Of a DNA stretch of 64,000 nt, positions 5,609 to 64,000 are shown piece after piece. Location of the stretch: NCBI RefSeq assembly GCF_058153355.1, contig NZ_CM177019.1; one strand, given 5' to 3'. The stretch's first letter is position 1. Each line of letters opens with the position of its first letter. The notes below the pieces were generated by a model. That model worked only from the letters and a program-made list of their open reading frames with translations. It searched no databases and was not told the origin of the DNA. A program made the translations under genes and the position numbers.

Positions 5609-5621
5609 CGGCATAACGCCG
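5609..5621. repeat. 13-bp target-site duplication, left copy (cggcataacgccg)
   Basis: identical 13-mer flanks both IS4 ends (second copy 7048..7060). Confidence 0.85.
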
Positions 5622-7047
5622 TAATGCCAGTCAGTTAAGCAACTGACTGGCTCTTTTTCGGGGCTGTGGGGTATTTCCAGGGCCTCTCCTTTACCACTCT
5701 CGGGAAGGCCCTTTCCCTTCTTGTCGGTAATTTCACAAGTTGTCCCATACTTGCAAGATCGCGCATCAGCTCCGGTATACGTCCCGGTGAAGCGCCCTGC
5801 AATGTCATCAGCATTCTCATCACCATTCCGCATGATTCTGAGAAACTCAGTTGATTCGGCCAGTAACCTTTCAGATGTTCCGCCATTTTAATCATCTGAT
5901 ATCTCACCAGATTATAAGCCAGTAAGACACCCCACAGCTCTTGCTCCACAAGCTCCGGCTTTTTACTTCTCAGCGTCAGCCTGCTCAGTTGCATCGTCTG
6001 TTTTATCTCCCTGTATCCCAGTTCGATTTCCCAGCGATGACTGTACAGATCCGCCATTTCTCCTCCGGGGAAGCGCATGGCGTCCGTCATCGACGTCAGC
6101 AGATGGCAGACTTTTCCTTTGCGCGTCACGGTCAGCAGGCGGGCTGTCACTTCATTTCCCAGTCCCGGCCACTTTTTTCGTGCCTGCGGGCTGGTTTTCA
6201 GCTTCACCAGATGATCGCCTTTACCCAGTTTTCTGATCTCTTCATATTGCGCTCCCTTTCTGAGAGGTATCATCCAGTGGCGGTGTTCTCCCGCCAGGCT
6301 CCAGGCATTTAACAGTCCCAGTGAGTAATAACCTTTATCCATTAACGTCAGAGTGTTATCGCCGGTTTGTTCTATAAGTTGCTCAGCAAGCTCATTTTCG
6401 CTGTTCTTCATCGTGCCGAAGGCTGCAGCCGTCAGCAGATGGCTGGTCAGTTCCATCTGGCAGACCATTTTGACCTGCGGGTAGAGCGCCGGGTTCCCGG
6501 CATGTGTCTGGCGGGGGAAGGCTGCATCGTTCTCTGGTGTATCCGGTGTGCGCCAGAACACACCATCGATGGCCAGCAGGGTCAGGCCGCACCAGTGCGG
6601 ATGCGGCGTGGCGTTATGCCAGAGCTGCGCTGTTTTCGTGAACACGCGGCGGACAGCCTCACTTCCCAGGCGCTGGCGGGCCTGAATAACGGCACTGGGG
6701 GCAACGAAGGGGCGATTGCCCGGCAGCATGATGTCCAGGCGATTCACAATCTGGTGAAGAGGTTCTTTACGCTCAAGCGCCATGCCAACAATACACCAGA
6801 CCATCATTTCGAGGGGAAGACGGCGCTTGCGTAGCGTTACAGTACCTGATTCGGCAAGGCAACGAGAGATGAGTTCGGGGTCGAGGTAATCCCCCAGAGA
6901 AGTCAGTGGGTTACGCAGAGAATCGTAACGGGATACCAGATCAAGAGCCTGTCCAATGTGCATAAAAAAATCCGGAAACAAGTGAGCGTTTCCGGATTCT
7001 TACACAGCCACTGGATCGGTCAACTGATCCTTAACTGATCGGCATTA
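5622..7047 (-). mobile_element. insertion sequence IS4, complete 1426-bp copy
   Basis: 1426 bp matches recalled IS4 length; imperfect terminal inverted repeats (taatgccag... / ...ggcatta); single 442-aa transposase; flanked by 13-bp direct repeat. Confidence 0.9.
5635..6963 (-). CDS. insG: IS4 transposase InsG (442 aa from Met [10 protein letters not shown])
   Basis: ORF 5635..6981; sequence recognised as the IS4-family DDE transposase. Confidence 0.9.
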
Positions 7048-7060
7048 CGGCATAACGCCG
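7048..7060. repeat. 13-bp target-site duplication, right copy (cggcataacgccg)
   Basis: identical to 5609..5621. Confidence 0.85.
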
Positions 7061-22946: not shown

Positions 22947-23034
22947 GGTGAGGTGTCCGAGTGGCTGAAGGAGCACGCCTGGAAAGTGTGTATACGGCAA
23001 CGTATCGGGGGTTCGAATCCCCCCCTCACCGCCA
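22947..23034 (+). tRNA. serX: tRNA-Ser (anticodon GGA), 88 nt with long variable arm
   Basis: ggtgaggtgtccgagtggctgaaggagcacgcctGGAaa...gggggttcgaatcccccctcaccgcca; cloverleaf by eye, CCA-encoded 3' end. Confidence 0.9.
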
Positions 23035-23480
23035 TCTTTAAAGAAGAGCTCGTACGAAAGTACGGGCTTTTTTTTTCGTATATTGCACACACCGGGGGGA
23101 TGAGAAGCCCCGACAGGGGTTCGACAACTGGCGACAGCCAGTTGGACAGACCGTGAACGCAGTGAGCGGGCTGCCCGCAGGGCGAGCGAAGCGAGTCAAT
23201 CCCCCCCTCACCGCCATCTTTAAAGAAGAGCTCGTACGAAGGTACGGGCTTTTTTTTCGTATATTGCACACACCGGGGGATGAAAAGCCCCGACCGGGGT
23301 TCGACAACTGGCGACAGCCAGTTGGACAGACCGTGAACGCAGTGAGCGGGCTGCCCGCAGGGCGAGCGAAGCGAGTCAATCCCCCCCTCACCGCCATCTT
23401 TAAAGAAGAGCTCGTACGAAGGTACGGGCTTTTTTTTCGTATATTGCACACACCGGGGATGAAAAGCCCTGACCGGGGTA
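23016..23480 (+). repeat. tandem direct repeat array, about 2.6 copies of a ~180-bp unit, each unit beginning with a 19-nt copy of the serX 3' end and a hairpin+T-run
   Basis: aatccccccctcaccgcca recurs at 23016, 23198, 23378; following ~160 bp nearly identical between copies, with internal 8-bp stem caactggc/gccagttg. Confidence 0.85.
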
Positions 23481-23485
23481 CTTAG

Positions 23486-24172
23486 TTAATGCAACGGTTC
23501 ACCCTTTGTCGCCGCGGCTAATGGGCGAATTTTGTCACGGGTATCCCAGACCGGAGGGATTTCATCCAATTTAGTGACAGAAGCTCGTACAAAAGGCACC
23601 CGTGCAATAGTCATAATCGTATTCAACCAACGGTCACGAATAATGCGATCTGCCCTTTCATGACTCGGATCATCCAGCTCAATAACACAGACTATTTTAT
23701 TGTTCTTCTTTGAAACCAGAACATAATCCATTGCCATTCCATTATAAATTGCAAAGAAACGCTTTCTTTCTTCTTCGCTAAACTCGGGTTGTTCTGGAAA
23801 GTTGATCAAGCGCCCCAGAGAGACCTGGCAATGGATATGGCAATAATGTCCAAACCATTTCTCCAGATTATCGAAATAGATTTTCTCACAACGCGTAATT
23901 AACCACTCTTTTCCTTCCAATAAAATGCCTTCGGCAACCATTCCCTGAAATAACTCATCTCGTTCTTGCCAACGAGAATCACGATAGGTTTTCTGCGGTG
24001 TATAGCTCCTTGTCGACGCCTTAACAGCAGGGGAAGTTGCAGATGAAGGGACTGGTTGCAATTTAGTGATGATTACCGATGAGGCAACTTTTCGGAGTGT
24101 CAATTTTCTGGCAACAGCAAAACCGGCGACAAATGCAATTGTCAAACAAGTTACAAAAACCATAAAGCTCAT
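23486..24172 (-). CDS. orphan membrane-anchored protein with putative DUF2726 / PD-(D/E)xK nuclease-like C-terminal domain (228 aa)
   Basis: ORF 23486..24172 with AGGTGA Shine-Dalgarno; N-terminal TM helix; C-terminal motif AMDYVLV...KIVCVIELDDPSHE resembles the D..(D/E)LD..H signature I associate with DUF2726; not a gene I recall at this K-12 position. Confidence 0.55.
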   Translation of the reverse strand: MSFMVFVTCLTIAFVAGFAVARKLTLRKVASSVIITKLQPVPSSATSPAVKASTRSYTPQKTYRDSRWQERDELFQGMVAEGILLEGKEWLITRCEKIYFDNLEKWFGHYCHIHCQVSLGRLINFPEQPEFSEEERKRFFAIYNGMAMDYVLVSKKNNKIVCVIELDDPSHERADRIIRDRWLNTIMTIARVPFVRASVTKLDEIPPVWDTRDKIRPLAAATKGEPLH

Positions 24173-24721
24173 AATTAATCTTCACCTATCCATGTTGATT
24201 ATATTTCATTACTAACGCTACTCGCTGTAGCGAGTTACATGCCAACAATTCAACGATCCATATATAGTTAGTATCATGTTTTGATTATTACAACCATACC
24301 TATTTTGCCATTGCGGCTTGCCGTCCACAAAAAATAACAACACAAAATATTAGCCAAAGAATTAATTAAGATTAACCTGACATTTTTAATGTTATCCCTA
24401 AAAAATATAATCAGGGGAATGTATTCGGTGTTAATCAATCAGCCAAATTATGGTCCATTATTGATGGAACCTCATACGCAAAATTGGCACCAGACCTCCT
24501 GTACAGGTTGAATGGCTGAAAAAAGATAAGCAGATGCTCGCTTTTTGGGCTTCTGGAAGAAAAACTCTCCGCACTGGCGGTATTACACTGGTCTGGTGCT
24601 ATGACGACAAATGCCCGGTAAGAGTATCTAAACCTGAATTCATTTCAGCTTATCAACACGCTCAAAGTCGCCCCCTGAACGTTAACCTGAAGTGAAAATC
24701 TTTGCTGTTAATGAAATAAAA

Positions 24722-43690: not shown

Positions 43691-44927
43691 TCACCGCTTC
43701 ATTCAACACGCTATCAAACTTATCCATTGGGCAGAAACCATCAGCGTCTATCGGGCAGCCGGTTAATTCCAGCGTCACGCGCTGAGCCGGAGCCTGCAAC
43801 GTTAACGCGTCGGCATTACGCAACTGTTCCGAACTCTGATACACATATTCAATTTTCATCAAATCGCGATTAGCTTTGCTGTCATGCCAACGCTGGAAAA
43901 CGATTTTGCCGCCAATCGGCGTGCGTTCGTTCTGGTCATGCAACTGATACGGTTTGAAATCAAGTGCCGTTAACAGAGAGGCAATGTTTGAGTCGTGCCC
44001 AACCAGTACCGTGATTTTCGGTGCACTGGCGCGATCTGTCACCAGCGCTCTGTCGATATAACTGACCAGTGGTTTCGCAACATTGCGCGCCACTTCCGGT
44101 GAGGTAAACAGGCTATCCTGGTAACCGTTTTTCAGCTTCGACAACACTTTCCACTGTTGGTCAGATTTGATTTCTCCCCACGCCACCTGATCCATCGGGA
44201 AACCTTCGTAGTATTGCAAAGTAAACGCATCTACCAGCGAGTTGCCGACTTTCAGCGGCCCGGAAACGCCCGGTTCTTGTTGATACTTCGCGCTAAAGGT
44301 GTTTTTGCCATCTACAAGCGAACACTGTTGCTTCTCTTTACAGGCAGGAGAATCTTTATAGTTAACGATTTTTTCCAGTAGCTTGTAGCTGTCGGTAAGC
44401 TGGAGTTTGCCGAGCTCTTTCTCCATTGCCGCCACCGCCTGTTCACTGAATGCGGCGGAATCATCGGTGATCACCGGGTTAAAGGTTGGGTCCATGGTGC
44501 CCATTTTTTCCTGGTGGTGGACTGGAATGTCACACCCAGGGAATGCGCCAGTAATAAAGAACTGCGCGGTTGCGACGGTACGTTGCAGGCTGTTGGCATA
44601 GGCATAAACGGTGTCCGGCGGCGGGCATTCCCCCGAATTCACCATCCCCTGCTCTGCCAGCCACTCACGCATATAGTGGCCCATATACACTTCCAGCACA
44701 CCGCCTTTGGTGGTGAGCTGCCCACCGGGGACGTCCCATTCTGGCCATTTATTCGGTGTGGATTGTTCCAGCACACTGCCATTGTTCGCCAGCGGCGCAC
44801 GTAAGTTATGGCGGCTCATCATGAGCACTTGCTGCAACTGATAGCCTTCCGGTACGGTTTGTGCCTGAGCATTTGAAGCGAGTAAAACTATCCCTGCCAC
44901 AGCTGCGGCGATTAGCGTTTTGTTCAT
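43686..44927 (-). CDS. agp: periplasmic glucose-1-phosphatase Agp (413 aa from Met [10 protein letters not shown])
   Basis: ORF 43686..44951; histidine acid phosphatase motif RHNLRAP. Confidence 0.9.
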
Positions 44928-45221
44928 TCCTGGCACCTCTTTTGTTATCAATCACCAAAGAGTGTGACAGAAATATGACATTTTTCCGGGAACAGGTTCG
45001 CAAAATGGCTTGTTGAGTGCCTGTTTTTCTATATTTGTCATTAAAAAAAGGCAAGATTTGACGCAACCTATGCATGATTAGCCCCTGCCTCGTGTACGCC
45101 GTTGATGATTTCACCATGGGCTAGACAGAATATCACCGACGTTATCGATACAGGGGCAATATTTACTAGTAAAAAGAGAATGTGAGACTAATAAAAACTA
45201 TTTTAGCACATGTCTTTATCA

Positions 45222-46475
45222 TTAGATGGCATAACGATTTAAATAGTCCAGTTGCGCTTTCATTTCCTTATGGTTTAACTGGTATGACTGAGCAAAAAGT
45301 TCAGTAGGGAGGTAAACGTCATAATGATTGCCAGTATTCATTAAATAACCATACTCAAGATCTTCATCCGTTGAAAAGGATTCACTTCCCAAGGAGATTG
45401 ATCCCACATTACAGGCAACAATAAACAATGAACAAATGCTATCTGAAAGCACAGCAAGGAAATTCTTCACTGCTTTAACCTTTTCCGGAGAGTCGGTATT
45501 TAAAACAAGCGAACCCTTGTTATCATTAAATATAAACTCGGGTAAATGCAATATGCATCTTTCGTCATTCAAGCAACTACCAATGAATTCTTTTTTAAAC
45601 TTAATAAAATTCGACGCTAAAGAATTACCCATATCCTGAATTTGGTTGTCAGAATGCAGATCAACGCCAAATAATGTCTTAATATCTTCCCTGAGATTAA
45701 AGAATGCTGCATCAACAAAAGACTCAATCACTTGTTTATCAACAATTTTAATAAATTCGTCGTATACTTCTTTTTGCGTCTTTTGACTACCAAGCGCCCA
45801 TGAATAATCAACGTGTTTTATAACCAGTATGGCTCTTAACAGACAATATCCATCGCCATCTACAGGCGCGTATTTTAATTTATGTGCTTGATTAATTTCA
45901 CTCTGAATAAAAGATATACCAGACAAATCAATACCAGTAACTGAATCATATATTCCCGGCGTATTTATCCATTTTGGCTGGACACTCGTAATTTCATCAT
46001 CATCAAAGCAATACTCAGAAAAAACATCATTACACTCATTTAAGATATCAACATATGCTATAAATTTATACCAACAGCTACTTTTAAAGCCTGCAATAGC
46101 CTGTGAAAACATACCCGGCAAGGATATATTAACAAGCTCTCTTTCTTGAAAATATTGTATAGTATAGGTAATGCCTCCTGAATCCCCTGAATAAGTGTTT
46201 GTATCATGAGTACGTAATGTTTTCATAAATGAAGATAAATCATTATCATTTTGCATTTCCTCTAATTCTGTTTCTAGTGATTCACACACCAGGCATGAAA
46301 TATTTTCTTCTTTCCGCATGATTTCATTGTACAACCGCATAAAACACTCTAGTTTTTGTTCAAAAAGCGTGATTGAACATTTTTGATTTTCTTCGCGCCT
46401 GGTTTTTATATCGGCCCAGGCTGTTTTCAAATAATTATTAGCACTGCAACTTACTCCATGTATATTACTACCCAT
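45222..46475 (-). CDS. yccE: uncharacterised protein YccE (417 aa)
   Basis: ORF 45222..46475; position between agp and cbpA as in K-12; function unknown. Confidence 0.7.
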   Translation of the reverse strand: MGSNIHGVSCSANNYLKTAWADIKTRREENQKCSITLFEQKLECFMRLYNEIMRKEENISCLVCESLETELEEMQNDNDLSSFMKTLRTHDTNTYSGDSGGITYTIQYFQERELVNISLPGMFSQAIAGFKSSCWYKFIAYVDILNECNDVFSEYCFDDDEITSVQPKWINTPGIYDSVTGIDLSGISFIQSEINQAHKLKYAPVDGDGYCLLRAILVIKHVDYSWALGSQKTQKEVYDEFIKIVDKQVIESFVDAAFFNLREDIKTLFGVDLHSDNQIQDMGNSLASNFIKFKKEFIGSCLNDERCILHLPEFIFNDNKGSLVLNTDSPEKVKAVKNFLAVLSDSICSLFIVACNVGSISLGSESFSTDEDLEYGYLMNTGNHYDVYLPTELFAQSYQLNHKEMKAQLDYLNRYAI

Positions 46476-46732
46476 ATATAGCGCCTATAAAATTTAATAA
46501 ATAATGACGTCCTAGTTAAGCTTAAAGTGCCTGATTTAACTATCAAAAATCGCTCACCCTTTTACCTGTTTAAACTATGCTCAGCAATCCATCTTGACGC
46601 CACCTCCTCTCCACGATGATTTCAATAACATATTCTGTGTTGGCATATGAAATTTTGAGGATTACCCTACACTTATAGGAGTTACCTTACAGGGGTTCCT
46701 TCAATTTGTGTTGATTTACGCGAGATAACGCT

Positions 46733-47653: not shown

Positions 47654-47958
47654 TGGCTAATGTTACGGTGACTTTTACTATTACCGAATTTTGCCTACAT
47701 ACCGGCATCTCTGAAGAGGAATTGAATGAAATTGTCGGTTTGGGGGTGGTTGAACCGCGAGAGCGCCTGGAAACAACCTGGGTATTTGACGACCATGCCG
47801 CCATTGTGGTGCAACGTGCGGTACGCCTGCGTCATGAACTGGCTCTGGACTGGCCGGGGATCGCGGTGGCGCTGACGTTAATGGATGATATTGCGCACCT
47901 GAAGCAGGAAAACCGCTTGCTGCGCCAGCGGCTTTCCCGGTTTGTGGCTCATCCGTGA
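47653..47958 (+). CDS. cbpM: CbpA modulator CbpM (101 aa)
   Basis: ORF 47638..47958; ATG overlaps cbpA stop. Confidence 0.85.
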
Positions 47959-47962
47959 GTTT

Positions 47963-48105
47963 GTTGCCTGATGCGACGCTTAACGCGTCTTATCAGGCCT
48001 ACAAAGCGCACTGTCCCCGTAGGCCGGATAAGGTTCATGCCGCATCCGGCGGATCTGCCTTAATGTCTAATGCGACGCTCAACGCGTCTTATCTGGCCTA
48101 CAAAC
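47963..48105. repeat. REP/BIME cluster between cbpM and torD
   Basis: three REP-like units in alternating orientation. Confidence 0.7.
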
Positions 48106-48109
48106 GGCA

Positions 48110-48709
48110 TTATCTGTTTTGGTTGTCGCACTCCACTAACGCCAGCAATAACTGGCTTAGTGCCGCGTAAAAACCAAAGCTATCATACTGATGGCAACAC
48201 GCCGCAAACTCCGGTAACCATTGTCGCAGCGCCGTCAGTGTTTTTTGCCGCAGATTGTCGATTCTTCGCGCAGGAACGGTCCCCTCTCCCAGCGAAAAAT
48301 GCAGATGACTCAACAACTCGAGATAGATCGCCAGATGATCTGCCGGTTCGTTGAAATTGCCGCTGGTTTCCATCCCTGCCTCAACTAACAAGCGTTTAAT
48401 CTCTTGCTCGTCCTGTTTGTAGGCCGATGCATAAGGCAGCGCCGCTTGTTTGTCGGTCATCAGAAACAGGCCGCAAAAGTCAGCGGCCAGTTCCAGACGG
48501 GCGTCGTCACGCACTGTCAGAGCGGCAATTTTAGTTTCCAGCTCGTTTACCGCCGCAGTGAGCGGCGGTTCGCTTTTTAGCAACGAAAACCATTCAGCCA
48601 TCTGCGCACTGGCGATTTGCGTTAGTTGTTCATCGTCCAGCTCACGGGAGAACAACTGCGCCAGCCAGGCGTAGACACAGGCAATCTGTTGTGCTGTCAG
48701 CGTGGTCAT
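48110..48709 (-). CDS. torD: TMAO reductase chaperone TorD (199 aa)
   Basis: ORF 48110..48742; start [10 protein letters not shown] overlaps torA stop. Confidence 0.9.
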
Positions 48710-53236: not shown

Positions 53237-54237
53237 TAAAAATAGACCGGACGAAATCCCCCTGGTGACAGCGAGCGGCGGATATGTTCGCGATCGGCAT
53301 TTTTCGGCGTCAGGACTAAAATCGGTGGGCTGACATTATCAGACACCGATTGTCCCTGTAATTGCCTGATCGCTTGCTCAACCGCCAGTTCCCCCTGCCA
53401 GACCATTTGATCGCTGGCAGCCATGATCACTCTTCCCCGCTTTAGTCCGCGATACACCTGATGTGAAAGATAAAATGACACCACGGTCAGCGGCGTTTTC
53501 AGGTTGCGCCCTTCACCCATTGCCGCCTCTGCCGCAATCGCCGTTCCGGCCACAACGTCGATTTCTGGATGGCGCTCCAACATCTCCTGCAACAGGTTAC
53601 GCTGGATTTCAATATCGTTGTCGCCGAGCGCAATATCGACAATACGCACCGGGCTTCCGGCAATGGCGGCGCGGAAACCCTCTACCATCTCCTTACTGCC
53701 CCCGGCGTTATCGGGGCCGGGCATCAACAGCACGTTCAGTGGTTTTCCGTGACTCCATTGCACCAGATATCGCCCTGGTTGATAGCCCATCTGAAACCAC
53801 GGCACACCAACGCGGCTTTTCACCTGGGGAGCATCAATAGCATTTACCAGTTCGATCACCGGCAGACTTGCTACCTGCTTTTGCAGGTCGGGAAATGACG
53901 TCGTGCTACTACCGAGCAAAATGGCCTCTGCACCCCACTGTTTGCACTGGTCGATTTGTGCTTGCTGGGTAGCCAACTGGCTGTAGCCGCCTGCCTCCAG
54001 CACTTTTAAATCCACACCGTAGCGGCGAGCAGCCTCCTGCATACCATAGTTCAACGATAACCAGTATGAATCTTTCAGGCTGGGATAAAGCGCGCACAGT
54101 TTCCATGCGCGTTTGGCTTTAAGCGGCATAGAGGCTTGCACCGTGAAATGCTGCGCATCATGCCAGCGCAACAAGTTATCAGCCGAAAAACCAGGCCACA
54201 TGAAAAGGGAAAGAAGTAACAATAGCAGTACGCGCAT
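53209..54237 (-). CDS. torT: periplasmic TMAO-binding protein TorT (342 aa)
   Basis: ORF 53209..54237; signal peptide; 3' end overlaps torR 3' end by 28 bp. Confidence 0.85.
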
Positions 54238-57135: not shown

Positions 57136-58209
57136 ATGGCAGAGAAAAGAAGAACCCGCTGGCAGCGGCGGCCAGGCACGACGGGCGGCAAATTACCGTG
57201 GAATGACTGGCGCAATGCCACGACCTGGCGTAAAGCGACGCAATTATTACTGTTGGCAATTAATATTTATATTGCCATCACGTTCTGGTATTGGGTGCGC
57301 TATTACGAAACGGCAGGTAGTACGACATTTGTCGCCAGGCCAGGAGGCATCGAAGGCTGGCTACCGATTGCCGGTCTGATGAATCTGAAATATAGCCTTG
57401 CAACAGGCCAGTTACCGTCCGTCCACGCCGCCGCGATGCTGTTATTGGTCGCTTTTATCGTCATCAGTCTATTACTAAAAAAGGCCTTTTGTTCATGGTT
57501 ATGCCCGGTTGGTACGCTTTCTGAATTAATCGGCGATCTCGGTAACAAACTGTTTGGTCGGCAATTTGTCCTTCCCCGCTGTCTGGATATTCCTCTGCGC
57601 GGCGTGAAGTATTTGCTGTTGAGTTTTTTTCTCTATATCGCGTTATTGATGCCCGCTCAGGCTATTCACTATTTTATGTTGTCGCCCTACAGCGTGGTGA
57701 TGGACGTTAAAATGCTCGATTTCTTTCGTCATATGGGGACCGCGACATTAATCAGCGTGACCGTTTTGCTGATTGTCAGTCTGTTTATTCGCCATGCCTG
57801 GTGTCGTTATCTTTGCCCATATGGCGCGCTGATGGGCGTGGTTTCGCTATTGTCGCCGTTTAAGATTCGTCGCAATGCCGAAAGTTGTATCGACTGTGGC
57901 AAATGCGCAAAAAATTGCCCATCGCGGATCCCGGTCGATAAATTAATTCAGGTACGAACCGTGGAATGTACCGGTTGTATGACTTGCGTAGAGTCATGTC
58001 CGGTAGCCTCAACATTGACCTTTTCACTGCAAAAACCTGCGGCAAATAAAAAAGCCTTTGCGTTGTCTGGCTGGTTAATGACGGTACTGGTTCTGGGGAT
58101 TATGTTTGCGGTGATTGGTTACGCAATGTATGCGGGAGTATGGCAAAGCCCGGTGCCGGAGGAATTGTACCGACGCTTAATTCCGCAAGCGCCAATGATT
58201 GGTCACTAA
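57136..58209 (+). CDS. yccM: membrane 4Fe-4S ferredoxin-type protein YccM (357 aa)
   Basis: ORF 57136..58209; CxxCxxC motifs (CIDCGKCAKNCP, CTGCMTCVESCP). Confidence 0.85.
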   Translation: MAEKRRTRWQRRPGTTGGKLPWNDWRNATTWRKATQLLLLAINIYIAITFWYWVRYYETAGSTTFVARPGGIEGWLPIAGLMNLKYSLATGQLPSVHAAAMLLLVAFIVISLLLKKAFCSWLCPVGTLSELIGDLGNKLFGRQFVLPRCLDIPLRGVKYLLLSFFLYIALLMPAQAIHYFMLSPYSVVMDVKMLDFFRHMGTATLISVTVLLIVSLFIRHAWCRYLCPYGALMGVVSLLSPFKIRRNAESCIDCGKCAKNCPSRIPVDKLIQVRTVECTGCMTCVESCPVASTLTFSLQKPAANKKAFALSGWLMTVLVLGIMFAVIGYAMYAGVWQSPVPEELYRRLIPQAPMIGH

Positions 58210-58257
58210 ATTAGCAACAAGCGGAACATCACCTCGCACGGGGTGATGTTCACAAAA

Positions 58258-58431
58258 TCACATTATTTTGATTTTGACATCATAGCTTTCAAGCCCGGTC
58301 ATTTTTTCTCGTGCGGTGAAGCGAATTTCAGAGACTTCTTTCCCTGTATTCTTGTTCAGCTCGGCGATTTTTTGCGCGATAAAGTCAGCGATTTCCGTTT
58401 CGGCTTGTTTTTTTAACTCTTCAATATTCAC
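58258..58431 (-). CDS. gnsA: GnsA-family small protein (57 aa, GTG start), not in ORF track
   Basis: manual translation of the minus strand: (M)NIEELKKQAETEIADFIAQKIAELNKNTGKEVSEIRFTAREKMTGLESYDVKIKIM. Confidence 0.7.
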   Translation of the reverse strand: MNIEELKKQAETEIADFIAQKIAELNKNTGKEVSEIRFTAREKMTGLESYDVKIKIM

Positions 58432-58651
58432 TGTTAACCTCTTCTGGTCTTAAAAGACAGCAACACGCCAGTAAGGTGTTGGTTCCCGGTACCCTGGTCA
58501 GGTAAGAAATGTTATAAGCCATCTCCCCTAAAGATTCAATAATCAACAGGTTATCGCTTACTATACATACAGCGTTGAAGAAAAATAAGGCAGATATAAA
58601 AAAGGCTCCACGAGGGAGCCTGATCTTATTTTGTGAAATCCAGCGGCGCAT
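58421..58651 (-). CDS. ymcE: small membrane protein YmcE (76 aa from Met MRRWISQNK)
   Basis: ORF 58421..58684; position between cspG and gnsA. Confidence 0.5.
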   Translation of the reverse strand: MRRWISQNKIRLPRGAFFISALFFFNAVCIVSDNLLIIESLGEMAYNISYLTRVPGTNTLLACCCLLRPEEVNSEY

Positions 58652-58824
58652 GGTCAGTGCGTATTTGCAGCGCGACGTTATCAAAGGTGATCATCGTCGA
58701 TTTACAAAAAATACACTTTGCCCCTAAAGGATTTCGCTCCGTCACATCGAATGCCGATGTGCGGTACTGTGAACCATGACAACATGGACAGCGGAAATGG
58801 AGATGTTGAGTAATAACGGCAACC

Positions 58825-59037
58825 TTAGAGCGTAACAACGTTCGCTGCCGCGGGACCACGTTGCCCCTGCTCAATAGAAAATTCAACTTTCTGATTTTCG
58901 TTCAGCGTGCGGAATTCATTGCTCTGGATGGCGGTGAAATGGACGAAAACGTCTTTGCTGCCATCATCAGGAGTGATAAAGCCAAAACCTTTATCTGCGT
59001 TAAACCATTTTACTAAACCAGTCATTTTATTAGACAT
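58825..59037 (-). CDS. cspG: cold-shock protein CspG (70 aa)
   Basis: ORF 58825..59037; CSD with [15 protein letters not shown] motif. Confidence 0.9.
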
Positions 59038-59322
59038 ATTTTACTTCCTTCATTTTGGGCCTTTCGGCAAACAGGGCTTTAATACAGAAACTACTTAGTG
59101 TTCAGGAGAGAGACTCAAAAGAAGGGGATAATGCCTGATAATGAGAACTGCTTTAGTAAACTACTTTGTATGCTGTCTGTCTTTCAAACCGACGCAGCTA
59201 TTAACGCATGATAATTGAGATTAAGCAATTTTTATTTTAGCCGTCCGGCGGTCTTAAATATCGCTGGCTTTATTTTATTAACCCCGTATAGTGCAGCGCA
59301 GTATTTTCAGTAAGGAATTTGT

Positions 59323-59535
59323 TTGTCCCGTAAAATGACAGGAATTGTCAAAACCTTTGATCGCAAAAGCGGCAAAGGATTCATTATCCCCTCCGACGGT
59401 CGTAAAGAAGTCCAGGTCCATATTTCCGCATTCACTCCCCGCGACGCAGAAGTGCTTATACCAGGATTACGCGTGGAATTTTGCCGCGTAAATGGCCTGC
59501 GAGGACCAACAGCGGCAAATGTTTATCTCTCTTAA
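59323..59535 (+). CDS. cspH: cold-shock-like protein CspH (70 aa)
   Basis: ORF 59323..59535; divergent CSD. Confidence 0.85.
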
Positions 59536-59544
59536 GATGACGCA

Positions 59545-59575
59545 GCTTGTTTAAAGCTGGCTGTTTTTATTAAAA
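59545..59575 (+). terminator. hairpin + T-run downstream of cspH
   Basis: cagcttgtttaaagctg followed by tttttatt. Confidence 0.55.
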
Positions 59576-59976
59576 AAGCTCAATAGTCAACATCGCACAT
59601 TATAACAAAAGTTACTTTCACCCCAGAAAACAAATCCATTTGGCCGAATATCTCTGCACCTAATAGTTATAAATGCTACTTAACAGTCAATCATAGTACC
59701 GTTTGAAACTATATCACCAACAATAGTTAATAGCTTTCTTAACAATTTTCTTATCTTTAATTTGTATTTTGCTAAGATTTATCTTATGCTCACAAGTCGT
59801 ATTTCCAGAGGGAAATCGTTAACAATCTTATATTTCTCTCTGCGCACCTTTCCCACTCGCGGTATATAGTACCGACAGTATGCGGAAAGGGAGATTTCAC
59901 AAGGATGTTATACTCAAAGTAGACAATCCTGATCTCAAGCGTACGTATTGTCCATGCGATGAATAAAGGAAAAGTT

Positions 59977-60303
59977 ATGAAACACAAGCTTTCTGCAATC
60001 CTTATGGCCTTCATGTTGACGACGCCAGCTGCGTTTGCTGCACCAGAATCAGCAAACGGGACCGAGGCAACGACGGGTACTACTGGCACCACAACGACCA
60101 CTACTGGCACCACAACGACCACTACTGGTGCCACTACGACTGCTGCTACCACCGGTGGCGTAGCTGCTGGCGCTGTCGGCACAGCGACGGTTGTCGGTGT
60201 GGCAACGGCTGTTGGTGTGGCGACTTTGGCAGTAGTTGCAGCAAATGACAGTGGCGATGGCGGTTCTCATAACACCTCAACCACCACGTCCACTACGCGC
60301 TAA
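59977..60303 (+). CDS. gfcA: threonine-rich small membrane protein GfcA/YmcD (start approximate)
   Basis: ORF 59959..60303; signal/TM segment then Thr/Gly-rich low-complexity tract. Confidence 0.8.
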   Translation: MKHKLSAILMAFMLTTPAAFAAPESANGTEATTGTTGTTTTTTGTTTTTTGATTTAATTGGVAAGAVGTATVVGVATAVGVATLAVVAANDSGDGGSHNTSTTTSTTR

Positions 60304-60409
60304 TACTGCTTTAACGCGTCAAAATTAAAGTTAAATGATACCCGGTTGCGATATTCGTACCGGGCTTTAGAGATTTGCATTTTTTTAATTAACCTTTCAA
60401 GGATTAAAG

Positions 60410-61054
60410 GTGCGCCCTCTTATTTTATCGATTTTCGCACTATTTCTTGCGGGATGTACGCACAGCCAGCAAAGTATGGTCGATACATTTCGCTCCAGCC
60501 TTTTCGATAATCAGGATATCACCGTAGCGGATCAGCAGATCCAGGCGTTGCCTTATTCCACGATGTATTTACGCCTTAATGAAGGGCAACGAATCTTTGT
60601 GGTACTGGGATATATAGAACAAGAACAAAGCAAATGGTTATCCCAGGATAACGCCATGCTGGTTACCCACAATGGACGTCTTTTAAAAACCGTCAAACTT
60701 AATAATAATCTGCTGGAAGTGACAAATTCCGGGCAGGACCCTCTGCGTAACGCGCTGGCAATAAAAGACGGCAGCCGCTGGACGCGCGATATTCTCTGGA
60801 GTGAAGACAATCATTTTCGCTCTGCGACCCTGAGTTCCACTTTTTCCTTTGCTGGATTAGAGACGCTGAATATTGCGGGTCGCGATGTGCTGTGTAATGT
60901 CTGGCAGGAAGAGGTGACTTCCACGCTGCCAGAAAAACAGTGGCAAAACACATTCTGGGTCGATTCGGCTACTGGCCAGGTTCGTCAAAGTCGGCAAATG
61001 TTAGGCGCAGGGGTTATTCCCGTAGAAATGACGTTTCTTAAACCCGCACCATGA
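60410..61054 (+). CDS. gfcB: group 4 capsule lipoprotein GfcB/YmcC (214 aa)
   Basis: ORF 60410..61054; lipobox LAGC. Confidence 0.85.
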   Translation: MRPLILSIFALFLAGCTHSQQSMVDTFRSSLFDNQDITVADQQIQALPYSTMYLRLNEGQRIFVVLGYIEQEQSKWLSQDNAMLVTHNGRLLKTVKLNNNLLEVTNSGQDPLRNALAIKDGSRWTRDILWSEDNHFRSATLSSTFSFAGLETLNIAGRDVLCNVWQEEVTSTLPEKQWQNTFWVDSATGQVRQSRQMLGAGVIPVEMTFLKPAP

Positions 61055-61797
61055 ATAAATTACAGTCGTATTTCATTGCCAGCGTACTTTACGTAATGAC
61101 ACCCCATGCCTTTGCGCAAGGAACGGTGACTATTTATCTGCCTGGCGAACAACAGCCCCTTTCCGTTGGCCCCGTGGAGAATGTTGTCCAGTTGGTGACA
61201 CAACCGCAACTGCGCGATCGCCTCTGGTGGCCTGGAGTCTTGCTGACCGACTCCGCGGCGAAAGCTAAAGCGCTTAAAGACTACCAACATGTCATGGCAC
61301 AGCTTGCTTCCTGGGAAGCAGAAGCTGACGACGATGTGGCGGCAACGATTAAATCCGTGCGCCAGCAGTTACTCAATCTCAATATCACTGGTCGCTTACC
61401 GGTCAAACTGGACCCTGATTTTGTACGAATGGATGAGAACAGCAATCCCCCGCTGGTCGGGGACTATACGCTCTATACCGTACAGCGCCCAGTGACTATT
61501 ACTCTGCTGGGTGCGGTTTCTGGGGCTGGGCAATTGCCCTGGCAGGCAGGCCGTAGCGTTACCGATTATCTGCAAGATACCCCCCGTCTTGCAGGCGCGG
61601 ACAAGAATAACGTTATGGTGATTACGCCTGAGGGTGAGACTGTCGTCGCCCCTGTTGCCCTGTGGAATAAAAGACATGTGGAACCACCGCCTGGCAGCCA
61701 GCTTTGGTTGGGCTTTTCTGCGCATGTACTGCCCGAAAAATATGCTGATTTAAATGACCAGATTGTGTCTGTTTTAACGCAACGTGTTCCTGACTGA
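61051..61797 (+). CDS. gfcC: group 4 capsule protein GfcC/YmcB (248 aa)
   Basis: ORF 61051..61797; 4-bp overlap with gfcB. Confidence 0.85.
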
Positions 61798-63893
61798 TGA
61801 AGAAGAACTCTTATCTTTTAAGCTGCCTGGCCATTGCCGTCTCCAGTGCCTGTCATGCTGAAGTATTAACCTACCCGGATCCGCTGGGTTCGTCGCAATC
61901 AGACTTTGGCGGCACAGGATTGTTGCAGATGCCAAATGCGCGCATCGCACCGGAAGGTGAATTCAGCGTCAACTACCGGGATAACGATCAATACCGTTTC
62001 TACTCCACGTCCGTGGCGCTGTTCCCATGGCTGGAAGGCACCATTCGTTATACGGATGTGCGCACACGCAAATATAGCCAGTGGGAAGATTTCAGCGGCG
62101 ATCAGTCATACAAAGACAAATCTTTCGATTTTAAACTTCGCCTGTGGGAAGAAGGTTACTGGCTACCGCAAGTGGCGTTTGGTAAACGTGATATTGCTGG
62201 TACGGGTCTGTTTGACGGTGAATATCTGGTGGCCAGCAAGCAAGCGGGGCCATTTGATTTCACCCTCGGGATGGCGTGGGGCTACGCCGGTAATGCGGGC
62301 AATATTACCAACCCGTTTTGCCGGGTGAGCGATAAATATTGTCATCGTGCAGAGTCTCACGATGCGGGAGATATCAGCTTTAGCGATATCTTTCGTGGTC
62401 CGGCGTCCATCTTTGGCGGCATTGAGTATCAAACGCCGTGGAATCCTCTGCGTCTGAAACTCGAATACGACGGCAACAATTACCAGAATGATTTTGCGGG
62501 CAAATTGCCGCAGGCAAGTCATTTCAATTTCGGTGCTGTGTATCGTGCTGCCAGCTGGGCAGATCTTAACCTTAGCTACGAGCGCGGTAACACATTGATG
62601 TTTGGCTTCACATTACGGACCAATTTCAACGATCTGCGCCCTGCCCTGCGCGATACGCCAAAACCGGCATATCAACCTGCGCCGGAATCTGAAGGATTGC
62701 AGTACACCACAGTAGCGAACCAACTTACCGCGCTGAAGTACAACGCAGGTTTTGAAGCACCGGAAATTCAGCTGCGCGATAAGACGCTGTATATGTCTGG
62801 TCAACAATACAAATACCGTGATTCTCGCGAAGCGGTCGATCGTGCCAACCGGATTCTGGTGAATAACCTGCCGCAAGGCGTTGAGAAGATTAGCGTGACG
62901 CAAAAGCGCGAGCATATGACGATGGTGACTACCGAAACCGACGTAGCCAGCCTGCGCAAACAGCTGGCCGGTACAGCGCCAGGTCAATCAGAGCCACTGC
63001 AACAACAACGTGTTGAAGCTGAAGATCTTTCTGCCTTTGGTCGGGGCTACCGTATTCGTGAAGATCGCTTTAGCTACTCTTTCAACCCAACACTTTCACA
63101 GTCGCTGGGCGGCCCGGAAGATTTCTATATGTTCCAGTTGGGGCTGATGTCCAGCGCCCGCTACTGGTTTACCGATCACCTGCTGCTTGATGGCGGTATT
63201 TTCACCAATATTTACAACAACTACGACAAGTTTAAGTCTTCGCTGTTACCCGCGGACTCTACCCTCCCCCGCGTGCGCACGCATATCCGTGACTACGTTC
63301 GCAATGACGTTTATCTCAACAACTTGCAGGCGAACTATTTTGCCGACTTAGGCAATGGTTTCTATGGCCAGGTGTATGGCGGTTATCTGGAAACGATGTA
63401 TGCCGGTGTCGGTTCCGAGCTGCTTTATCGCCCGCTAGATGCCAGCTGGGCGCTAGGTGTGGACGTTAACTACGTGAAGCAGCGTGACTGGGACAACATG
63501 ATGCGTTTCACCGATTATTCCACGCCAACAGGTTTCGTGACGGCTTACTGGAATCCGCCGACGCTCAATGGCGTACTGATGAAACTTAGCGTTGGGCAAT
63601 ATCTGGCAAAAGATAAAGGCGCAACGATCGACGTCGCCAAACGCTTTGACAGCGGCGTGGCGGTAGGGGTATGGGCGGCAATCAGTAACGTATCTAAAGA
63701 TGACTACGGCGAAGGCGGCTTTAGTAAAGGTTTTTATATCTCGATTCCGTTCGACTTGATGACCATTGGACCTAACCGCAACCGCGCGGTGGTTTCGTGG
63801 ACACCATTGACGCGTGATGGTGGACAAATGCTGTCACGCAAATACCAGCTCTATCCAATGACGGCAGAGCGAGAAGTACCGGTTGGACAATAA
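61797..63893 (+). CDS. gfcD: outer-membrane protein GfcD/YmcA (698 aa)
   Basis: ORF 61797..63893; signal peptide and lipobox; synteny. Confidence 0.85.
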
Positions 63894-63938: not shown

Positions 63939-64000
63939 ATGAAAAAGAACATTTTTAAGTTTTCGGTACTGACATTGGCTGTTCTGTCTTTGACAGCATG
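63939..64000 (+). CDS. gfcE: start of Wza-like polysaccharide export lipoprotein GfcE (partial, runs off window)
   Basis: ATG at 63939; MKKNIFKFSVLTLAVLSLTA signal peptide. Confidence 0.6.
   Translation, partial: MKKNIFKFSVLTLAVLSLTA

Follow-up and report, generated by a model that had tools for sequence, protein, structure and literature searches.

The locus raises the question of whether the operon for export of the group 4 (O-antigen) capsule, gfcABCDE-etp-etk, has an intact upstream region in this strain or carries the lesion of Escherichia coli K-12. In K-12 an IS1 element lies in the promoter region of the gfc (ymc) genes and has been linked to the lack of expression there (PMC2516531; PMC12428005). 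The operon works in EPEC and EHEC strains (PMC8592465; bioRxiv 10.64898/2026.07.23.740414). The DNA analysed here, a stretch of 64 kb referred to below as the window, runs through cspH and gfcABCD and ends within gfcE. A first-pass annotation had proposed that no insertion sequence lies between cspH and gfcA, and that the operon may be expressible. The evidence set out below favours, with a probability of about 0.9, the reading that the DNA upstream of the operon is in its ordinary IS-free form, ancestral in Escherichia. The IS-free state is the rule in the species and nothing special to this strain, and this was already known.

The spacer between cspH and gfcA

The cspH-gfcA intergenic spacer occupies positions 59536-59976 on the plus strand, between the end of cspH at 59535 and the start of gfcA at 59977, which makes it 441 bp long rather than the 420 bp first estimated. 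As had been claimed, it is rich in A and T, with a G+C content of 35.4% (30-36% in its centre) against 50.4% for the whole window. The order of cspH, spacer and gfcA-B-C-D-E on one strand matches that of K-12, of the relative EC42405 and of EPEC E2348/69, and the upstream region of about 440 bp is uninterrupted and free of any mobile element.

In K-12 MG1655 the inserted element is IS1D, which is 768 bp long and carries insA4/insB4 (b4516/b0988). Its annotation places it 33 bp ahead of the gfcA start codon if the duplicated target is counted, and 24 bp ahead without it; K-12 thus carries an IS1 in the gfc promoter region, as had been stated. The two loci share their flanking genes, and the 33 bp adjoining gfcA are identical in both; the difference is that K-12 has an IS1 and a 9-bp duplication after the equivalent of 59952, whereas the window has neither. 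The window spacer aligned with MG1655 collinearly from end to end, and the sole gap, 777 bp in the window sequence at the place of IS1D, consists of the 768-bp element and the 9-bp target duplication. In a three-way alignment the window and EC42405 were both collinear with K-12 on either side of the element. The target itself, CGTATTGTC, flanks IS1D on both sides in K-12 and is present in the window spacer as a single, empty copy at 59944-59952 on the plus strand; a second copy in the 64 kb lies at 53638 on the opposite strand. A search for IS1 terminal inverted repeats, with up to three mismatches allowed, found none in the 64-kb window. Alignment with the gfc upstream regions of K-12 and of EPEC/EHEC revealed no IS fragment and no deletion in the window. 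The empty target, the gap-free alignments and the absence of IS1 ends bear out the claim that no insertion sequence lies between the two genes.

The genes on either side, all on the plus strand, are readily identified. The upstream gene, cspH (59323-59535, 70 aa), scored 176 bits with the NCBIfam equivalog model for CspH, against a cut-off of 141, and is 99.1% identical to K-12 cspH. Downstream, gfcA (59977-60303) is present and in frame and encodes a threonine-rich protein of 108 aa, 98 of whose 108 residues match K-12 GfcA; the nucleotide identity of the two genes is 88.7%. Neither Pfam nor NCBIfam offers a model that matches GfcA. As GfcA-D are not modelled in NCBIfam, families were called with Pfam. 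The product of gfcB (60410-61054, 214 aa) matches PF11102 YjbF with 232 bits and is the same as EPEC GfcB at 213 of 214 residues. That of gfcC (61051-61797, 248 aa) matches PF20616 and PF06251, the N- and C-terminal domains of GfcC, and agrees with K-12 at 244 of 248 residues, while that of gfcD (61797-63893, 698 aa) matches PF06082 YjbH with 899 bits and agrees with K-12 at 694 of 698. GfcB, GfcC and GfcD are full length, with the K-12 and EPEC lengths and no stops, and are 97-99.5% identical to the proteins of EPEC E2348/69. Of gfcE, the first 62 nt (63939-64000) are visible before the window ends, and they are 100% identical to nucleotides 1-62 of K-12 gfcE. The description of gfcABCD and the gfcE start as intact thus holds. 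The window does not extend to the remainder of gfcE, to etp and etk or to the O-antigen genes; in EC42405, the closest relative (98.6% identical over 24 kb), the annotation shows gfcE, etp and etk as intact, with the K-12 lengths.

The gfcA gene contains an array of 21-nt in-frame repeats at 60070-60153, with three to four copies against one fewer elsewhere, and the one extra in-frame unit gives a GfcA of 108 aa rather than the 101 aa of K-12. The extra unit is absent from K-12, from EPEC and even from the closest relatives.

Over the whole window, the nearest 15 or so complete genomes (EC42405 and E400634, for example) are 98.1-99.2% identical, and K-12 about 95-98%. With no near-identical complete E. 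coli genome, the window appears to come from a rarely sampled E. coli lineage. Away from gfc, a mobile element is present in the window: an IS4-family element at 5621-7048, between opgH and yceK relative to K-12, encodes a transposase of 447 aa on the minus strand (5635-6981; Pfam Nterm_IS4, DDE_Tnp_1). Between phoH and the tRNA-Ser gene serX (22947-23034), the K-12 segment 1,086,099-1,097,119 (pgaABCD, dgcT, IS3D, ymdE, ycdU) is absent and is replaced by 1.2 kb at 23478-24718 that includes a DUF2726 ORF (23486-24172); in the BLAST comparison, a stretch of about 440 bp following serX shows up twice. The stretches most divergent from K-12 lie at 44850-46650 (the yccE region) and about 47750-48350, with up to 20% divergence per 400 bp. 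Upstream of cspH, the Rfam model for the cspA thermoregulator (RF01766) matched at full length on the minus strand (58771-59193, 157 bits), as expected for a cold-shock gene; the match covers cspG, whose coding sequence is 58825-59037, and its 5' leader.

Conserved and variable segments of the spacer

When alleles are compared, the spacer appears as a mosaic of conserved and variable segments, given here on the plus strand. Close to cspH is a terminator-like hairpin with a T-run (59543-59569), made up of a stem at 59543-59559 followed by GCTGTTTTTA; it was recognised by consensus pattern only, and its function as a terminator is putative. Next comes a fast-evolving distal segment (59570-59749), which is 83-87% identical to the K-12, O157, O103 and EPEC alleles, and then a near-invariant central block (59750-59812), which is 98-100% identical in E. 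coli alleles except that of E. coli B and 95% identical in E. albertii. A second fast-evolving segment (59813-59883), 80-85% identical to mainstream E. coli alleles, separates this block from a near-invariant proximal block (59884-59976), which is presumed to be the 5' leader and to contain the ribosome-binding site, and which is 98.9-100% identical in 12 E. coli alleles. The proximal block has a single substitution among the E. coli alleles, that of EPEC E2348/69, and is 95.7% identical in E. albertii and in the cryptic species Escherichia sp. MOD1-EC7003. Positions 59922-59990 are invariant in 13 genome alleles; EPEC E2348/69, a further allele, differs at 59924, and single substitutions are found in a few metagenome contigs. 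In the E. coli B lineage, 23 bp of the central block are deleted.

Taken as a whole, the spacer is 88.5% identical to that of K-12, with 48 mismatches and no gaps, and 89-90% identical to those of O157, O103 and EPEC, against 97-99.6% for the flanking genes. It is about 11% removed from every experimentally studied allele, and all of this divergence falls within the two variable segments. Ranked among 400-bp intervals of the 64 kb, it stands above the 95th percentile for divergence, and is exceeded by the yccE region (44,850-46,650) and by another stretch around 48,000. K-12 is itself only about 94% identical to O157, O103 and EPEC in the spacer, compared with 98.6-99.5% in the flanks (cspH and the 5' part of gfcB), so the divergence is not particular to the window strain. 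The second variable segment of the window resembles that of E. albertii and of the cryptic Escherichia species; as a type common to these two, it is probably an older form and not a degraded one. Two strains, N96 and Z0117EC0005, join window-type and mainstream-type segments in opposite combinations, an indication of recombination. The allele in its entirety is rare among the 5,426 complete genomes: none is at least 99% identical, five are at about 98.6-98.9%, and 16 reach at least 95%. The carriers of this rare allele and the nearest relatives of the whole window are the same 15 or so genomes.

EPEC O127:H6 E2348/69 is the strain in which the gfc operon was defined. There and in EHEC O157:H7, the operon (formerly ymcDCBA-yccZ-etp-etk) follows the same cspH-gfcA-B-C-D-E order and is preceded by the same 441-bp IS-free spacer (440-441 bp in O157:H7), with an identical central block. 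The EPEC proximal block is one base away from that of the window (59924), and its GfcB, GfcC and GfcD show the 97-99.5% identity given above. The differences lie in the two variable spacer segments, which are 15-20% removed from the window, and in GfcA, which has one extra 7-residue Thr/Gly unit in the window (108 versus 101 aa).

A consensus scan of 59200-60500 yielded no sigma-70-like promoter on the strand of gfcA. Candidates picked manually there reached at best 7-8 of 12 consensus positions, and none was named as a promoter; in the accessible literature, no mapped gfc promoter or transcription start was found. The lack of a match to the sigma-70 consensus suggests that the promoter is probably activator-dependent. 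Going by conservation only, the transcription start would lie within the spacer, probably inside the central block (59750-59812) or shortly after it, and the transcript would run through the conserved leader (59884-59976) into gfcA and then along the operon as one mRNA. The gfc operon has been reported to be transcribed as one mRNA in EPEC (PMC8592465). In K-12, IS1D sits inside the near-invariant proximal block, and an IS1 in the leader would separate the operon from these upstream signals.

The central block contains a candidate RcsB box, TAAGATTTATCTTA (59773-59786, plus strand), which fits the RcsB-box consensus TN(G/A)GAN4TC(T/C)NA (PMC7913699) perfectly and agrees with the RcsAB box TaAGaatatTCcta (PMC4325325) at its conserved positions. 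Matches to the RcsB-box consensus number three in the 64 kb, against 2.5 expected, and the chance of one falling within the central block or the spacer is estimated at roughly 0.2-2%. The E. coli B deletion removes the candidate box. The yjbEFGH operon of K-12 is a paralogue of gfcABCD, and the Pfam YjbF and YjbH models match GfcB and GfcD. In work attributed to Ferrieres et al. in 2007, yjbEFGH was reportedly found to be under the control of the Rcs phosphorelay. The perfect RcsB-box match upstream of gfcA may give gfc a comparable input. In an O157:H7 isolate with a disrupted rcsB gene, ymcD (gfcA) changed by only +1.48-fold (PMC5343319), a value that does not support strong Rcs activation. 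The sequence TAAGATTTATCTTA is best treated as a candidate RcsB site, a lead rather than a finding. As for other regulatory elements, no match to the RfaH/ops (JUMPStart) element GGCGGTAG was found in 59536-59976 with at most one mismatch. A scan of 58000-61000 against Rfam 15, at E values up to 1, gave no hit in the spacer; it returned only the cspA thermoregulator described above and two sub-threshold hits outside the spacer. CsrA-like GGA motifs were noted by eye, in ACAAGGATGT at 59899-59908 and in the ribosome-binding site, and are not conserved in MOD1-EC7003.

The leader may form some structure as RNA. Its single-sequence fold had a z-score of -2.1, and an alignment fold of 59800-59990 gave 57 pairs, of which one covaries convincingly (59861/59873: GC, AU, UA); the remaining changes include several wobble-preserving transitions. 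Metagenome variants (64 usable copies of 67 loci) both keep and break the predicted leader pairs. The same region contains a 28-codon ORF, MRKGRFHKDVILKVDNPDLKRTYCPCDE, at 59880-59966, which stops 10 nt short of gfcA. E. coli and E. albertii both preserve this ORF, with five synonymous changes among six substitutions. It was rejected as a coding gene on the grounds that it is without a start codon and has an in-frame stop in MOD1-EC7003, where the downstream 63 nt are invariant, and that it has no Shine-Dalgarno sequence. With the ORF broken in that species but the rest of the block invariant, and with no ribosome-binding site for it, the constraint looks to be on the nucleotide level. The K-12 IS1 would interrupt this ORF.

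Insertions and losses at the locus in Escherichia

The occurrence of the spacer was counted over the 5,426 complete E. coli genomes. It is present in 3,717 of these and at least 80% covered in one piece in 3,481, the K-12 type included. The K-12 junction between IS1 and gfcA, represented by a 100-nt probe across it, was found at full length in 466 of the 5,426, which are K-12 derivatives and apparently some natural isolates. Subtraction of the 466 from the 3,481 leaves about 3,000 genomes with an uninterrupted spacer, a figure to be read with the proviso that the 3,481 still include some spacers interrupted by other insertions, that of strain 64 for example. About 1,680 genomes, or about a third, have cspH and no spacer. 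In these, cspH abuts or overlaps appA, which indicates deletion of the whole gfcABCDE-etp-etk operon. The spacer is IS-free and of nearly constant length in EPEC E2348/69 (441 bp), O157:H7 and O103:H2 (440-441 bp), E. albertii (439 bp) and MOD1-EC7003 (440 bp), and the IS-free arrangement thus appears to be ancestral for the genus. A scan of species-representative genomes with a degenerate gfcA pattern returned only two loci.

Insertions independent of that in K-12 have occurred in the spacers of other strains. An IS1 is found at the equivalent of about 59929 in strain 64, of about 59783 in strain E1433 and of about 59778 in strain 361, in which gfcA is also missing and gfcD frameshifted. In strain 58-3, an IS3-family element lies at the equivalent of about 59812. 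Two metagenome contigs add an IS1 end at about 59921 and another element at about 59911. These recurrent insertions, together with loss of the operon in about a third of the genomes, show that the capsule export operon is often lost or switched off. Phages that need the capsule as their receptor have been described (bioRxiv 10.64898/2026.07.23.740414), and selection by phages of this kind is one possible, and speculative, driver of such loss or switching off.

It may be ventured, as a doubtful proposal, that the spacer is a modular regulatory region, in which two elements are strongly constrained at the nucleotide level across Escherichia while the intervening segments diversify and recombine, in which the leader is a recurrent IS target that acts as an off-switch for the capsule, and of which the window holds a rare, probably older allele that is capable of being on. 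The constrained elements would then be the central block with its RcsB-box match and an almost invariant leader, about 70-90 nt long, that might be a structured 5' UTR, and phages with the capsule as receptor could be the selective pressure.

Prospects for expression and capsule

As far as can be judged from its sequence, the locus appears competent for expression in cis, as it is in EPEC and EHEC. Its cis arrangement is that of strains with a working operon, and the guarded statement that the operon may be expressible can stand. Actual expression is not readable from sequence, and a capsule depends in addition on gfcE, etp, etk, the O-antigen cluster and regulators.

Improbable, yet the most likely of the alternatives, is that the region is intact in cis and nevertheless silent or differently regulated in this lineage, owing to the divergent variable segments or to silencing of the AT-rich DNA by nucleoid proteins. 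The spacer does stand apart from those of K-12 (88.5%) and of O157, O103 and EPEC (89-90%) between flanks of 97-99.6%, an allele at least 95% identical occurs in only 16 of 5,426 genomes, the centre has just 30-36% G+C, and the want of a good sigma-70 consensus suggests dependence on an activator. Both conserved blocks, however, the RcsB-box match and the entire leader included, agree with those of known functional alleles at every position but 59924 in EPEC, and the second variable segment is probably an older form rather than a degraded one.

It is less probable again that, in spite of an intact promoter region, the strain makes no capsule, through breakage of gfcE, etp, etk or the O-antigen cluster outside the window. 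No more than 62 nt of gfcE can be seen, losses at this locus are frequent in the species (the 1,680 or so complete genomes without the whole operon), and in one strain an IS1 in the spacer is accompanied by a frameshift in gfcD and the absence of gfcA. Against this, annotation shows gfcE, etp and etk as intact in the closest complete genomes, and the four visible genes are under evident purifying selection, with protein identities to EPEC of 97-99.5%.

That the spacer conceals an old IS remnant or a deletion scar, and so is not truly wild type, was prompted by the 420-bp estimate and by the frequency of insertions in the spacers of other strains, has no positive evidence in its favour, and is refuted by the full-length, essentially gap-free alignment to 13 other alleles, two other Escherichia species included, together with the single-copy target and the lack of IS1 inverted repeats.

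Under the favoured reading of an ordinary, ancestral, IS-free upstream region, the absence of IS1 is the default of the species, and means only that this strain escaped the K-12 lesion. Work to map the gfc promoter could draw on the conserved blocks, on the candidate RcsB box and on the recurrent IS insertions. Provided that the remaining genes of the operon and an O-antigen cluster are present, the strain would be able to produce a group 4 (O-antigen) capsule, and such a capsule affects resistance to serum and defensins, the shielding of surface structures and the adsorption of phages.
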